Source of the DNA: a virus
Taxonomy: Duplodnaviria; Caudoviricetes
Length of the DNA: 64,000 bases
Virus record (IMG/VR): IMGVR_UViG_3300024493_000235
Location: 128,001 to 192,000 of that record
Direction: 5' to 3' (one strand)
Shown here one piece after another: positions 3,414 to 62,095 of this stretch (position 1 is its first letter; each line of letters begins with the position of its first letter). Below the pieces are notes generated by a model that had not been told where the DNA came from, made no database searches, and saw only the letters and a list, made by a program, of their open reading frames with translations. Position numbers and translations under genes: made by a program.

Positions 3414-3450
3414 ACATCGGAGGGCATTTTGCCCTCCGATGTTTTTTATT
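3414..3450. terminator. Intrinsic terminator between convergent genes
   Basis: ACATCGGAGGGCA-ttt-TGCCCTCCGATGT followed by a T-tract. Confidence 0.85.
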
Positions 3451-5827
3451 TGTTGTCTAAAAACGCGTTTATAATAGTATCAAGAGTCGTATCGCTCATA
3501 TTATCAGAGATACCTTGTCTCATGCGTTCTCTTAAAATGTTTTGTTCTCGTATATATCGTGCCTTCTCGATATTGTTTTTTTTGGCCATCTTGGCTGTAA
3601 CAATTTTCCTATCGAGTTCCTCGGATTTCTGTCTCTTATATTGCTCTCTTTCTGATATACTCATGCCAGTCATCGTTTGTTGTATGTCTTCGGCTAAGAC
3701 ATCGTCCATTTCAAGTTCTTCAATAACTTCTGTTTCTGTAAGGTCAAGTAAAGATTCTTCAGAACCAAAAACCATTTCCGCTATATCGGCATAGGAGTTA
3801 TTGCCTTTATCGAATTCTGATTCATGAGTAAGAGAATTTCTTGTATCAACACTAAGAGTCGGTTTCATGTCAATAATAGAATTATAATTATTCTTCCCAA
3901 GAAATGCTGTAGTTTGAATTTTTATTACATCTTCCAATGTACTCATCGATTTTTCGAGTAGATCAGATTCTTCTATTCGTTTAGCGTCGTCGGCTAACGA
4001 CATAGGTCTTATATATCCTATAGGATAATCATATCTATCCGCAAGAATTTTAGAATAACAAAGCACCCACAATCCTATAAGATATGCTAAAAGAATATCG
4101 TCGTGTTTTCCAAATTTGTGCTCCAATTTTCCTTTTTTGTTTCTGACAATATTATTAAGTTCAAGAAATATGTCGTTATCATGAAGTACGTCGTATAATT
4201 CGTTTATGATAATTCCAAGTAACTCAGAAAACATTTGTGCACGTCTTGGAGTTGTTGTATCAAAACCATAAGCTACAGCCCTTGTTTTATTTGTAAGATT
4301 AATATTGTCAGCCGTTGAAAGATAAAACGTTTCATTTGTAGTTTTAGTATCGGGTTCTAAAGCTGAAGCATACAATCTTGTTATAAGTTCCGGTTTTAAT
4401 GTCATAATATTATCGATGATGGCAACACCCATGTTATTTTTTTCGATAGCAATAAGTGCATTTACAAACATTGTTGCGACATCAATAATACAATATGTAA
4501 ATATCGTAGTATTAGAATATGCGGTTCTTGCATTACTGCGAAGTGTTCCTATAAGCTCAAAAGTTTGAGGATCAATAATTACTAATGAAGAATAATCATT
4601 TTCAAGCATACCAGAACAGTCAACTGATATGACGTATTTTTTCTTTACATCTGGTTTCTTAAATATTTTAAGAACGTATGTGTTACGAATCGTTATCGTT
4701 CCTATAGGAGGAGTTACATACCGATAAACCCTTTCCAATTGTTCTTTGGTAAACGGAGAATCGTTGGACCTTCTTGACCACATAAGAAGAACTTCGCGGG
4801 TAATGGTTTCCAAGTTATTCTGCATAACTTTACATATATCACGAAAGTAATCTTCTCCAAAACCAAGTTGCTTATAAGAAAAACGAATATAAACAAAATT
4901 ATTCTTTGATTGTGTATCGATGAGAGTGCGAAGAGAATCCATATCGGGCTGATCGTAAAACAGTTTTTCATCAAACCCGATACATTGTGGAAGCATATCA
5001 TAAAATATAAAATCCCCTTCCTCGGTTCCAAGAACTCCAGGAGTTGATGTACATATCCTACAATATGGAGCTCCATTCATCTTTGCAAAATCTTTTGCTT
5101 TGCTCCATGCAGGGGCCGAGTTCAAAAATATTGTTTTACAACTTGGAATATGTGGAAGCTCGTCAAACCATTGTTCAGGTTCTGTAGCACCGCGCGATTT
5201 ATTCATAGCCTGTTGCTCTGTAGCAGGAGGATTGCGAACGATGATGCGGTTATTTGTACTTTCAGATTTAAGTGATTCTTTATTGATGCTGTCTTTTTTT
5301 TCATCCATCATCTGAAGATACCATGGAAGATTCTTAAGTACATCTTTTACACGCTCAAGGTTATCCTTTACGATAACAGGGGTATTTGCAAAAAATGATG
5401 TATTTAAATTAACTCCACCAAATGCCCATACATATCCCATAAAAGCTGCGACGGTACCTGTCTTTGTAGTCTGACGTGGAATCTCTACATAACAGTTTAT
5501 GTTATTTGTCATAAGCCATGAGAGTGCCAAATTTCCACGATTAAATACAAATGGTGTAACGCCTCCTGGAGCATTTATTCGTACGATTTCTCGTAGATAA
5601 TACCAATAGTTTCGTACAATTTCGGCATGCACTCTTCTTTGCATTTCTACCGATAAATGTTTATCGAACGGATCTATATATTTTAAGTCTTCATCATATA
5701 GTGTTAACATGAATTTGCTGTTTTTAACACTTAGGGATTTTAATATATGCCAAATTTTTATAGCTGATAAATTTTGGGTATTGTGATGAATATGTGGCTC
5801 TAATAAATGTACAGGTCCTTCATTCAT
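3446..5827 (-). CDS. terL: Terminase large subunit (793 aa) with acidic/coiled-coil C-terminal extension
   Basis: Walker A EIPRQTTKT, Walker B QWFDE, coupling motif TSTPG, RNase H-like nuclease VISVDCSG...IEKNNMG...HDDILLA. Confidence 0.93.
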   Translation of the reverse strand: MNEGPVHLLEPHIHHNTQNLSAIKIWHILKSLSVKNSKFMLTLYDEDLKYIDPFDKHLSVEMQRRVHAEIVRNYWYYLREIVRINAPGGVTPFVFNRGNLALSWLMTNNINCYVEIPRQTTKTGTVAAFMGYVWAFGGVNLNTSFFANTPVIVKDNLERVKDVLKNLPWYLQMMDEKKDSINKESLKSESTNNRIIVRNPPATEQQAMNKSRGATEPEQWFDELPHIPSCKTIFLNSAPAWSKAKDFAKMNGAPYCRICTSTPGVLGTEEGDFIFYDMLPQCIGFDEKLFYDQPDMDSLRTLIDTQSKNNFVYIRFSYKQLGFGEDYFRDICKVMQNNLETITREVLLMWSRRSNDSPFTKEQLERVYRYVTPPIGTITIRNTYVLKIFKKPDVKKKYVISVDCSGMLENDYSSLVIIDPQTFELIGTLRSNARTAYSNTTIFTYCIIDVATMFVNALIAIEKNNMGVAIIDNIMTLKPELITRLYASALEPDTKTTNETFYLSTADNINLTNKTRAVAYGFDTTTPRRAQMFSELLGIIINELYDVLHDNDIFLELNNIVRNKKGKLEHKFGKHDDILLAYLIGLWVLCYSKILADRYDYPIGYIRPMSLADDAKRIEESDLLEKSMSTLEDVIKIQTTAFLGKNNYNSIIDMKPTLSVDTRNSLTHESEFDKGNNSYADIAEMVFGSEESLLDLTETEVIEELEMDDVLAEDIQQTMTGMSISEREQYKRQKSEELDRKIVTAKMAKKNNIEKARYIREQNILRERMRQGISDNMSDTTLDTIINAFLDNK

Positions 5828-11075: not shown

Positions 11076-11936
11076 TCAGTATCGAAGGACATCTTCGACA
11101 GACGATTTTTTTTGCGGTATTTTCGCTCTGTGAGAAAGAGTTCCCATTGTAATACTCCTTCCTATATCTTGAAATTTCAATGCTGTAAATGTTGATATAA
11201 CATGTGGAAGATCCAAAGCTTTCATGAATTTTAAGTTTGCAAGATCGGCCATCTGATCCCCTGTAGAAAGTCTGTTTAAATAATGTCTGTATGGAACCAT
11301 AAGATCTTTAACATACCGAGATTGGGCTGCTATCATTATTTCTAGTACAGCGGCATTTGTGCTAAAGTTTACACCATTTATTTGTGCGCTGCCAAATACA
11401 AGATCCGCAATTTCTGTGTATTTAACAATTGGAGGAAGGAAAGATTTCATGACAATATTCATAAATTTTCCTGCAACATCGGATTGTTTTGGTATTGTGA
11501 CATTCTTTATAAAAATATCACCTTTTTTATATCCAAGTACATAACACTGATGCTCTTCTTCTCCGGATAAACTCATATTACGCTTGAATATATCAGATGG
11601 GATTGTGACCAATGTGGACGGATACATGTACCTAGTTGTATAGTTACTTGGTGTATTATCCGGCCTATCGGGAATTGTATCCCAAATCTTTAGTTGAAAT
11701 ATTCCATATGTATATATTTCTCTTCCGTTTATTGCCATATTTTTTCTTGTAAGGCTTTCTGATGGAATATAAATTTCCATATATTCACCTATGAAAATCA
11801 CTTGACTTTCTTTATTTTTTTGAAAGTACATATGTATCGGCAATTTTGTTTTGACATTCTTTTTGTTGGATAAAATTCTATCAGCAAGTCCACCTTCCAT
11901 TGATATAACATAATCTGCAACGGACATTTCTTCCAT
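11076..11936 (-). CDS. Hypothetical protein, probably virion (286 aa)
   Basis: AAGGAG RBS, AACA-N6-TA at 11953-11964, N-terminal SME (S-x-E) motif. Confidence 0.85.
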   Translation of the reverse strand: MEEMSVADYVISMEGGLADRILSNKKNVKTKLPIHMYFQKNKESQVIFIGEYMEIYIPSESLTRKNMAINGREIYTYGIFQLKIWDTIPDRPDNTPSNYTTRYMYPSTLVTIPSDIFKRNMSLSGEEEHQCYVLGYKKGDIFIKNVTIPKQSDVAGKFMNIVMKSFLPPIVKYTEIADLVFGSAQINGVNFSTNAAVLEIMIAAQSRYVKDLMVPYRHYLNRLSTGDQMADLANLKFMKALDLPHVISTFTALKFQDIGRSITMGTLSHRAKIPQKKSSVEDVLRY

Positions 11937-11965
11937 TTTGAAACTCCTTAATTACATAGTTGTTG

Positions 11966-12176
11966 AAAATAAAAATAGCGTACCCTATAAAGGGTACGCC
12001 ATAGTGGAAAATCCTCAAGTGACGCTCTATTGATCTCGTAACACGAAACCGCTTAACCTACCTTGTTTGAAAAAGAAACCGTGTTTGGGACAATGTTTCT
12101 ATAAACCGAAAGGAGATAGGTTAAAAGCTACACTTGATTACGCGGCACAGCCTATATGATTAGACCAAAACCCATT
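11966..12176 (-). ncRNA. Candidate ~200-nt structured non-coding RNA
   Basis: AACA-N6-TA at 12187-12176. Nested stems: UCAAGUG/CACUUGA, UUAACCUA/UAGGUUAA, AGAAAC/GUUUCU, GGUUUCGU/ACGAGAUC. Ends in terminator GCGUACCCU-UUAU-AGGGUACGC plus U-tract. No RBS-led ORF. Confidence 0.6.
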
Positions 12177-12264
12177 ATCGTATTGTTAAATTATTATTGC
12201 AAAAGAAGTGAAATAAAGTATTATACAATTATATATCATTTATGTAGGAAGGAGATATACGCGT

Positions 12265-13011
12265 ATGATATTAACTTTACTTGTGTCTTTTGTTCAATCA
12301 TTCGTGGACTTGGAAGAAGATCGATGGTTGGACGGAATCGCAGCAGAAAATGCGAAGCGGAAAATTAAGGGAGAAAAACCTGCTGTTAAAGAGCAGCATC
12401 CTAACGTAGAGAGGAGACAGCAACAACCTGATTCCTCCTATCGCACGCCGAATCAAGTTAGTTCTGAAATTCCTATTCCGGGAGCTGGGAATTTCATAAC
12501 GTTCTGCAGCGATCACTGGCTTGCTAAAATGAACCCCAATCATTTTAACGAGCTGCGCACGATGTTTAAGGAACAGTTCCTTAAGCACGTGAACGAAAAG
12601 TATTTAAGCACTCTTTTTAACCGTGTAAAACACGCCATTGAGTGCACACTGGCAACACAGTTAGAATTTAAATTGGGGGACAACGTGTTCACGACAGTTA
12701 CAAGCTTCAAGGCGTTACAAACAATGCTTGAAGAAGCTGACAGGGACGCCCGCCTGTGGAATGGAAAGAAAGAATTGGCGCAAAACGACACCCTTATGAA
12801 TGTCATCGTTTGGACTGTCGTTGACCTCGAGTTCGCCAAACATTTAGGCGGAAAAAATCTGTCGAAACACGACCTTACAGAAAATGACAAAAACATCGTA
12901 TTCCCGACGATGATTCTTGCGGACTGCTATAACACGGCGTTAGCCCTGTTGGATTGCGCTCCTGTCGTTTTCAAAGTTCCAGAAAATCCGTCAACCCCAG
13001 CGGGTACTTAG
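12265..13011 (+). CDS. Hypothetical protein (248 aa)
   Basis: AAGGAG RBS, TATATATCAT at 12230-12239, terminator at 13019-13057. Confidence 0.8.
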   Translation: MILTLLVSFVQSFVDLEEDRWLDGIAAENAKRKIKGEKPAVKEQHPNVERRQQQPDSSYRTPNQVSSEIPIPGAGNFITFCSDHWLAKMNPNHFNELRTMFKEQFLKHVNEKYLSTLFNRVKHAIECTLATQLEFKLGDNVFTTVTSFKALQTMLEEADRDARLWNGKKELAQNDTLMNVIVWTVVDLEFAKHLGGKNLSKHDLTENDKNIVFPTMILADCYNTALALLDCAPVVFKVPENPSTPAGT

Positions 13012-13018
13012 GACGGGT

Positions 13019-13057
13019 TAACGCAAGGGGTTCTTCCACCCTTGCGTTATTTTTTTT
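13019..13057 (+). terminator. Intrinsic terminator
   Basis: TAACGCAAGGG...CCCTTGCGTTA plus T8. Confidence 0.85.
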
Positions 13058-13224
13058 GATGAAAACATTTATATAAGAGAAGATGGATTTTTATGAAAAA
13101 AGTCGTTTTAGTCCTCATTATGGGGAGTGGCTAGGATATATACAATAATGCTTATTTTATTAGCAGAACTTGTGGTCTAAAACACCTAAAATCGCCTCTT
13201 AATCTATGTAAAAAGGATTCAAAA

Positions 13225-13521
13225 ATGATATCAATAATCATACTTGTCATATTATTCATCGTAGCCGAATATTTTCTCATATTATACAGCGCAAAGAAAA
13301 AAGGTTTTATTATTCGAAAAGAAACCTATCAAGTTCCAAGACAAGGATGTCCTTATATAGTCTATAAGATTGTCTACACAGTTAACGGAGTATTTAAAAA
13401 AGCATCATACTCCATCGAAGTATCCAAAAACGATTTTGATAAAGCAAAATATGGAGACATAATCACAATTACAACTGATAATAAAGGCAAACAAACTGTT
13501 GATATTATTTCTAGCACATAA
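13225..13521 (+). CDS. Small membrane protein with N-terminal TM helix (98 aa)
   Basis: AAGGA RBS, hydrophobic N-terminus, beta-rich C-terminal part. Confidence 0.75.
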   Translation: MISIIILVILFIVAEYFLILYSAKKKGFIIRKETYQVPRQGCPYIVYKIVYTVNGVFKKASYSIEVSKNDFDKAKYGDIITITTDNKGKQTVDIISST

Positions 13522-13556
13522 AAATAATGTAGGGGCATAATGCCCCTACATTATTT
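13522..13556. terminator. Bidirectional terminator
   Basis: AAATAATGTAGGGGCA-taa-TGCCCCTACATTATTT between convergent genes. Confidence 0.85.
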
Positions 13557-60960: not shown

Positions 60961-61390
60961 ATCATTACGTCAATGGATACATTAGGGTCTAGTTTTATCA
61001 CGCTAGTGGTAAAGCGCCTCCTTTCAGCGTCCGTTTGCACCGATATACCACTCGGTGTACATATTAGAAATGCGCTATTAGCCATGGATGTATTTCTAGT
61101 AATGACGCAAAAAGACATGCGGATTGTATGTCGCTTCTATACATACGGTTCTTACTCGATCGTATAACGAATTCGATTTTCTGTCAAGCCGCAAACCGGA
61201 AATTCGTCTTCGTACCCATGATCTTAATGTATCCATTGATCTAATGATAAACATACAAAAGTTAATGGATTGACCAAAATGGTCGCGCTATTTGGTTAAG
61301 AATAGCTGTAGTAATTTTTGTGTGTTATCTTGGGTCCGCGTAAATCTTCCTTTACGTAAGCGCTATTACGGCGCTTACGTTTATTTTTTT
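60958..61390 (+). ncRNA. Candidate large structured non-coding RNA (~430 nt)
   Basis: 32-nt arms 60958-60989 and 61220-61251 pair at 31 of 32 positions, including 3 G-U. Many internal G-U-containing stems. A second 15-bp stem at 61250-61264/61312-61326. Terminator at 61354-61390. Confidence 0.7.
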
Positions 61391-61405
61391 AATCGGGGGG
61401 GGGTT

Positions 61406-62095
61406 ATGAAAAACGATAACCTACATGACTTGTCGACCTTCATGGACTGGTGGTCTGATAAGTGTGCGAAACCTTTCTCTATTCCGTTTCACATACAGCC
61501 TGATACTGTAAATCGTTTTATAGAGAAATATAAGTACGCAAATCTTGTATATGAAAGTTATACAGATGATGAGGATCACAGCACACCAAATTTTATGGCG
61601 CTTTTTTATTCTCCGTACTATCCTGTGTATACTTTACATCGAAAGTTTAAAATTCACACCATTCAGGATCATGAGGAATATGGCGGTAAATATACTGTGA
61701 CATTCAAGCATATCTTCTCAGAAGAGGAATTTCAGAAATGTAAATACTACAAAGAAGATACGCGTGAAAGAAAAAATCACATTGAAGTTGTGGAATATCC
61801 GCAAGAGAGACTTAAGGAAAAGGACAGCCTTTTGTCTATATCTCCGTATATTTTCGCATACGATTTCTTGAACTTAAAGGAACCTACAGATATAGCTTTA
61901 TCTTTACAGTTCTTGAAAAATCGGCATAACATATTGCAATCCTTACGTGTTTTATACATACAAAATGAAGAATCTTACACAGAAATTCTTAAAGCTTCTG
62001 GTTTTTCTATTGTCGATTGTGTACCGAATGTCGCATATCCTTTGTGTATGGACAACATTTGGGCTTATGATTTGGGTGCTTCAACATCTACATAA
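61406..62095 (+). CDS. Hypothetical protein (start reassigned to MKNDNL)
   Basis: ATG 61406 after a G9 tract. The upstream TTG extension in the ORF track runs through the RNA structure and terminator. Confidence 0.75.
   Translation: MKNDNLHDLSTFMDWWSDKCAKPFSIPFHIQPDTVNRFIEKYKYANLVYESYTDDEDHSTPNFMALFYSPYYPVYTLHRKFKIHTIQDHEEYGGKYTVTFKHIFSEEEFQKCKYYKEDTRERKNHIEVVEYPQERLKEKDSLLSISPYIFAYDFLNLKEPTDIALSLQFLKNRHNILQSLRVLYIQNEESYTEILKASGFSIVDCVPNVAYPLCMDNIWAYDLGASTST

Follow-up and report, generated by a model that had tools for sequence, protein, structure and literature searches.

The minus strand of a short intergenic gap in an uncultured giant phage carries a candidate late transcription unit, which runs from a late-promoter-like motif to an intrinsic terminator, and we put at about one half the probability that this small independent unit produces a non-coding RNA of about 210 nt. 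The window analysed here is the whole stretch of 64,000 nt, which corresponds to bases 128001-192000 of a 268,442-bp IMG/VR virus contig; the GC content computed for this context (window/contig) is 36.8%. Its gene content, which includes a g125-type virion gene, a terminase, an RNAP beta-like subunit and a ribonucleotide reductase, places the phage as a distant relative among the AR9/PBS1-like jumbo phages, which encode their own RNA polymerases. In the proposed scheme, the non-virion RNA polymerase of the phage would start at A12176, guided by the motif AACAATACGATA, and would copy a 174-nt sequence predicted to fold into a 5' hairpin and a three-way-junction domain. Transcription would end at the terminator located at 12002-11966, right before the separate late promoter of the following virion gene, yielding a predicted RNA that spans 12176 to about 11967. 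The sequence anatomy, the lack of an ORF, the strand specificity and the validity of the promoter class in this genome are shown, whereas we infer the transcription of this unit, the position of its ends and any function that it may have.

Predicted transcription signals in the gap between two divergent genes

The candidate unit lies in a gap of 328 nt (11937-12264) that separates divergent genes, both of which are outside the RNA. On the minus strand, the downstream gene (11076-11936) matches PHROG 2926, a virion structural protein, and its product is a homolog of the AR9 virion protein g125, with 27% identity (tblastn) to AR9 g125, its PBS1 counterpart and a Staphylococcus jumbo phage protein. 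The counterpart in Staphylococcus phage Machias is annotated, in one record, as a C-terminal beta-prime fragment of a viral RNA polymerase. On the plus strand, the early gene located at 12265-13011 encodes a 248-aa ORFan product for which 0 homologs were found in PHROGs, Pfam, IMG/VR and a 5.8-billion-protein database. A large terminase (3446-5827), the RNAP beta-like subunit and the ribonucleotide reductase are encoded near the candidate unit, and a query with the RNAP beta-like sequence retrieved IMG/VR relatives only, at 22-26% identity. ARAGORN detected 0 tRNA and 0 tmRNA genes in the window, and the sole detectable known RNA gene of the genome is a tRNA-Cys (GCA) at G000 244881-244954.

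The late promoters of AR9, recognised by the non-virion RNA polymerase, have the form AACA-(N6)-TA/G with the final base as the start site (PMC5312081, PMC5449584). The exact AACA-N6-TA motif announced by the original prediction is read directly on the minus strand at 12187-12176 (AACAATACGATA). It matches the AR9-type definition AACA-(N6)-T-A/G, in which the last base is the start, so that the AR9 rule would place the start at A12176, and the +1 set in this way falls one base ahead of the first helix of the RNA. Genome-wide, 51 copies of AACA-N6-T[AT] are found 10-39 nt 5' of ORF starts versus 7 for the reverse-complement control, which makes AACA-N6-TA a working late-promoter motif class of the phage. 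The copy at 12187-12176 scores 7.6 on a matrix derived from 50 sites that lie close to genes of the same phage, the training median being about 13, a low value due mainly to a C at motif position 7, present in 1 of the 50 training sites; 197 sites genome-wide score at least 8 on this matrix. Within the window, the bare AACA-N6-TA motif shows no enrichment (46 copies versus 55.6 expected), an exact motif is present 120-300 nt upstream of a random point in 6.8% of cases, and no gene follows about 27 of the 78 intergenic copies. Since the score of AACAATACGATA is low and the motif is frequent by chance, its assignment as the promoter of the minus-strand unit is plausible, not proven. Between 12176 and 22308, the AACAATACGATA copy is the only exact one on the minus strand.

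The plus strand of the gap carries the canonical early promoter of the 248-aa gene (12218-12251, core TATATATCAT at 12230-12239), together with its ribosome binding site (RBS). The early-promoter matrix score of 24.5 is typical for the training set. This promoter is unidirectional and points away, and would therefore not feed the minus-strand unit. No early promoter was found on the minus strand of the gap, where the best matrix score is 2.6, so that the AACA copy at 12187 would be the only possible phage-type promoter there. A sigma-70-like match on the same strand (TTGCAA-17-GATAAT, 12202-12174) was discarded, being no more than shuffles yield. The early promoter consensus derived here consists of a T-rich segment followed by (A/G)nnTATATAT(A/C)AT-N5-TA, with about 50 genome copies scoring at least 20; it is similar to the early box of AR9, AAATATATATTAT-N6-G, without being identical. 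In AR9, early promoters are a long AT-rich box and intrinsic terminators function at operon ends (PMC5312081).

The strong terminator with a U tract claimed by the original prediction is present at 12002-11966. Its hairpin, ATGGCGTACCCT-TTAT-AGGGTACGCTAT at 12002-11975, is followed by TTTTATTTT (11974-11966) on the minus strand, which gives in the RNA a 12-bp stem with 6 GC pairs, a 4-nt UUAU loop and the U tract UUUUAUUUU, for a stability of -19.7 kcal/mol. This is the arrangement by which an intrinsic terminator is defined, namely a GC-rich hairpin with a U tract directly after it on the transcribed strand, and it is strand-specific, as a T tract is present on the minus strand only. On neither strand does a gene end within 950 nt upstream of this terminator. 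The nearest upstream minus-strand gene, which encodes a 2894-aa protein, ends 1553 nt away, at 13555, and is served by a hairpin terminator of its own at 13527-13553; another terminator, at about 13021-13050, belongs to the plus-strand 248-aa gene. The terminator at 12002-11966 is thus left without any annotated gene to serve, which argues for a short unit starting inside the gap. Judged from gene positions, an orphan terminator between divergent genes would imply a separate short transcription unit, and this is the strongest argument for it. The distance from 12176 to 11966 is 211 nt, below the 250 nt used as a limit for promoter-terminator spacing, and no CDS lies between the two signals.

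The downstream virion gene has, as had been proposed, an AACA promoter of its own. This promoter, AACAACTATGTA (11964-11953, minus strand), has a matrix score of 10.1, begins one base past the U tract of the terminator and is located 16 nt before the ATG at 11936. An AACA-N6-TA motif is found at the same position, about 15-25 nt before the ATG, for the g125 homologs of the studied phage and of L002, L003, L004 and L005.

Two further elements were noted in the vicinity of the gap. The hairpin GTAGGGGCAT-AAT/ATT-GCCCCTAC, at 13527-13553 between the convergent genes for a 98-aa protein and the 2894-aa protein, has weak T tracts on both sides and is probably a bidirectional terminator. On the plus strand, a late motif with a high-scoring context (AAAACATTTATATAAG, stretch 13064-13224) is found 150 nt 5' of the 98-aa gene, which starts at 13225; only tiny ORFs lie between them, and this stretch may be a long leader or a further short unit.

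Fold, coding capacity and relatives of the unit

The structured core of the unit (12003-12176, minus strand) is 174 nt long and has a minimum free energy (MFE) of -49.2 kcal/mol. In the predicted structure, a 5' hairpin is followed by a three-way-junction domain, which the helix UCAAGUG/CACUUGA closes, with a small hairpin on the 3' side. All six stems named in the original prediction are recovered in the MFE fold, as UGGUCUA/UAGGCUG, UCAAGUG/CACUUGA, UUAACCUAUCU/AGGUAGGUUAA, AGAAAC/GUUUCU and GGUUUCGU/ACGAGAUC, with CCUU/AAGG inside the long helix. The centroid structure is the same as the MFE structure, the MFE pairs have a mean probability of 0.93, and the predicted RNA has hardly any long unpaired segment. 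Compared with dinucleotide shuffles, the z value of the whole unit on the minus strand was -5.4, and that of the core was -3.6, versus -1.2 when the plus strand was folded. A native control, in which 6168 windows of 174 nt from the same genome were folded and regressed on composition, gave z = -1.9 for the core, 282 of these windows (4.6%) folding equally well. Taken alone, the modelled thermodynamics of the fold are thus suggestive, not decisive. The GC content of the core is 0.40, versus 0.24 in the remainder of the gap and 0.33 in intergenic DNA overall.

The 9-mer AAGGAGATA is present twice on the plus strand, at 12110-12118 and at 12249-12257, the latter being the RBS of the 248-aa gene. 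The minus-strand RNA would consequently contain UAUCUCCUU, the 9-nt complement of AAGGAGATA, which is the common RBS of the phage, that of the neighbouring early gene included. This lead was abandoned, as both the duplication and the anti-RBS match are at chance level (112/300 shuffles), and UAUCUCCUU is buried within an 11-bp helix of the predicted fold. A scan of the phage genome for base-pairing targets yielded no convincing complementarity; the best match, 15 nt within a coding region, comes from a low-complexity part of the RNA and was rejected. Since the RNA has no long unpaired segment and no convincing phage target, a fold-dependent protein-binding role late in infection would be more likely than seed pairing, if the RNA is functional.

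No credible ORF was found in the gap when stop-to-stop frames were inspected in all six frames of both strands, and none of at least 20 aa has a start and an RBS. The only ORF at the 5' end is, as stated in the original prediction, one of 7 codons and no RBS: it encodes MGFGLII (ATG GGT TTT GGT CTA ATC ATA TAG, 12175-12152, minus strand), lies at the extreme 5' end and has no Shine-Dalgarno sequence. From these features it is probably not a gene.

The unit was searched for in several collections. At gathering thresholds, one tRNA-Cys was the sole Rfam result for the window and for the remaining part of the genome, and at E<=10 the region 11900-12300 gave four weak matches that were judged to be noise. 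With blastn, the region had 0 matches among 50,697 phage records. The single-sequence covariance model R1 recovered only itself in the window, its own genome, L002-L007, L027, the IMG/VR relative G001, AR9, BpSp and Machias. Exact 20-mer scans gave 0 matches in GTDB genomes, and the one IMG/VR match and one JGI metagenome match that they produced were rejected as chance occurrences inside unrelated coding sequence. Across all searches, 0 homologs or paralogs were found; no conservation of the fold in relatives was therefore observed, and the covariation check proposed in the original prediction had nothing to align.

The gap itself can be compared with that of metagenomic relatives. In L003-L005, the three closest relatives, whose virion protein is 52-56% identical to that of the studied phage, the same divergent layout is found with a junction of 74-111 nt, in which an early-type box nearly abuts the late promoter; in L003, the gene upstream of the junction is non-homologous to the neighbour present in the studied phage. 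Given the length of this junction in the relatives, the unit of about 220 nt would be DNA added in the studied lineage.

Alternative readings of the gap

The best-surviving alternative, which we regard as possible though unlikely, is that the core is an inert spacer, a remnant of about 175 nt of lost or foreign DNA, in which the AACA copy is a chance occurrence or a weak site and the terminator does no more than protect the late virion gene against stray transcripts of the minus strand, which would come for instance from spurious starts or from polymerase running on past the giant gene. The weak promoter score and the high chance rate of the motif are as expected from such a spacer, as are a fold stability unremarkable against native windows and the lack of any conservation found in a variable region where relatives have non-homologous neighbours. 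On the other hand, relatives with an equal divergent layout manage without such a terminator, the giant gene already has its own, the minus strand has no other exact late motif further upstream, and the early promoter faces away. Moreover, no frame remnant is detectable, and the fold of the core is strand-specific and well defined, with a GC content above that of the flanks.

The position of the unit, immediately 5' of the virion gene and co-oriented with it, also brings to mind a terminated leader or attenuator, in which starts at 12176 would mostly stop and would sometimes be read through into the g125-like gene as a regulated second input. There is precedent for this, as transcripts that end prematurely within 5' UTRs account for 8 of the 11 sRNAs of phage 201phi2-1, including one that precedes a conserved tail gene (PMC11512511). 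We nevertheless consider it improbable here, because the virion gene has its own conserved late promoter past the terminator, both promoters belong to one temporal class, and relatives express the virion gene without a leader. Moreover, no riboswitch-like antiterminator competes with the terminator fold, the best alternative pairing being 18 kcal/mol worse (ddG +18).

That the product is a micro-peptide, either a leaderless MGFGLII or another tiny ORF, is very improbable: the predicted +1 lies one base ahead of the AUG and would give a nearly leaderless message, but the ORF has seven codons only, neither an RBS nor homologs, about 185 nt of structured 3' sequence would be left unaccounted for, and the gap offers no ORF of at least 20 aa having a start and an RBS.

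The reading of the gap as an independent late unit producing a non-coding RNA is thus the one that we prefer. Of the stand-alone unit put forward in the original prediction, the anatomy, the absence of an ORF, the dedicated terminator and the separate promoter of the virion gene have all held, while the promoter copy proved weak and 0 homologs were found.

Elsewhere in the genome, outside the window, a second ORF-free cassette was detected on the minus strand at G000 61535-61744 (L015:2135-2344), within a gap at 61366-61760 flanked by two plus-strand genes. Its promoter, AACATTACAATA, has a matrix score of 11.1, and its fold a z of -3.0. With the start defined by AAAACATTACAATA, the +1 falls at the foot of a hairpin, and the terminator, about 190 nt further on, consists of a 10-bp G+C-rich hairpin and UUUUUGUUUU, the plus strand having no T tract. 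No sequence kinship was found between the two cassettes, their alignment being no better than that of shuffles (31/300), and the promoter variant AACAnTACnATA that they have in common is not significant, with 3 copies genome-wide versus about 1.8 that base frequencies predict by a hand estimate. The joint chance of two such cassettes is about 0.06 by a hand calculation that assumes about six truly orphan terminators and the rate of 6.8%. Two unrelated cassettes of like layout therefore modestly strengthen the idea of short late RNAs. A further ORF-free stretch, of 288 nt, is located just 5' of an early promoter at G000 66568-66855 (L015:7168-7455); its fold has a z of -3.4, and it is bounded by plus-strand terminators at 66573-66594 and 66801-66822.

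A broader proposal, which we consider a long shot, is that the phage makes several unrelated, lineage-specific structured late RNAs from promoter-RNA-terminator cassettes, that at 61535-61744 included, and that the RNA studied here is a late protein-binding decoy or scaffold. Such an RNA might act, for example, on one of the two phage RNA polymerases or in the loading of the virion polymerase, the latter being suggested by the C-terminal beta-prime-like fragment encoded next door.

If transcribed, the unit would rank among the earliest examples of a stand-alone late non-coding RNA from the AR9/PBS1 branch of RNAP-encoding jumbo phages, whose transcription is independent of the host. Being short and deletable, with a defined promoter and terminator, it would also provide an easy handle on structured RNAs late in giant-phage infection. 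At present it is one prediction, unconserved and made for an uncultured phage, and is of value chiefly as an annotation and a transcriptomics candidate.

Comparison with known RNAs and phage transcription units

The original prediction had noted a resemblance to RNAP decoys of the 6S type or to packaging RNAs, which was not borne out. Membership in, or mimicry of, a known class, be it a 6S-like RNAP decoy, a phi29-type packaging RNA or a fragment of a plus-strand group II intron, is highly doubtful. A size of about 200 nt and a high helicity would fit, but one tRNA is the only gene in the whole genome to reach the gathering score of an Rfam family, and 6S RNA and pRNA are missing from the matches even with the limit relaxed to E<=10. 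No rod with a central bubble is predicted, the plus strand folds like shuffles, and the phage encodes a large terminase. The weak plus-strand Rfam match to group-II-D1D4-7 (RF02012; 19.8 bits for a gathering score of 34, E 0.043) speaks for an intron fragment but was rejected, being below the gathering score with most helices deleted, no domain V nearby and a plus-strand z of -1.2.

The candidate shares with 6S RNA (RF00013) a similar length and a high helical content. It has no match to the corresponding covariance model and lacks both paired termini and a large central bubble; it is built of a 5' hairpin and a three-way junction, whereas 6S RNA is a rod. The pRNA of phi29 (RF00044) is, like the candidate, phage-encoded, 170-210 nt long and organised around a three-way junction. 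Here again no covariance-model match was obtained, and the candidate is devoid of the 5'/3' helix A. Small podoviruses of the phi29 type, which have a gp16 ATPase, are the phages to which pRNA belongs; the studied phage has a conventional large terminase instead.

Closer counterparts are found among giant phages. In 201phi2-1, short start-to-terminator units of less than 250 nt, several of them just 5' of structural genes, were mapped as sRNAs by ONT-cappable-seq, and sRNA001-011 of this phage together with the phiKZ sRNA located upstream of gp182 are units of this type (PMC11512511). The candidate resembles them in being shorter than 250 nt, without a CDS, ended by a terminator soon after the start and located 5' of a virion-protein gene in a giant phage with its own RNA polymerases. 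It differs from them in its AR9-like lineage, its other promoter type and the separate promoter of the following gene; furthermore, the 201phi2-1 and phiKZ sRNAs were found experimentally and one is conserved across genera, whereas the candidate is a prediction without relatives. The short start-to-terminator sRNAs of 201phi2-1 are the nearest described category (PMC11512511).

With the late units of AR9, the candidate has in common an exact core motif, a start at the final A and an intrinsic terminator of the kind used by the phage polymerases (PMC5312081, PMC5449584). Its promoter copy departs from the flanking bases preferred by the studied phage. The available part of one AR9 report does not mention a stand-alone late non-coding RNA gene (PMC5312081). 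In AR9, some late promoters drive transcripts that are not mRNAs but antisense RNAs (PMC5312081, PMC5449584).
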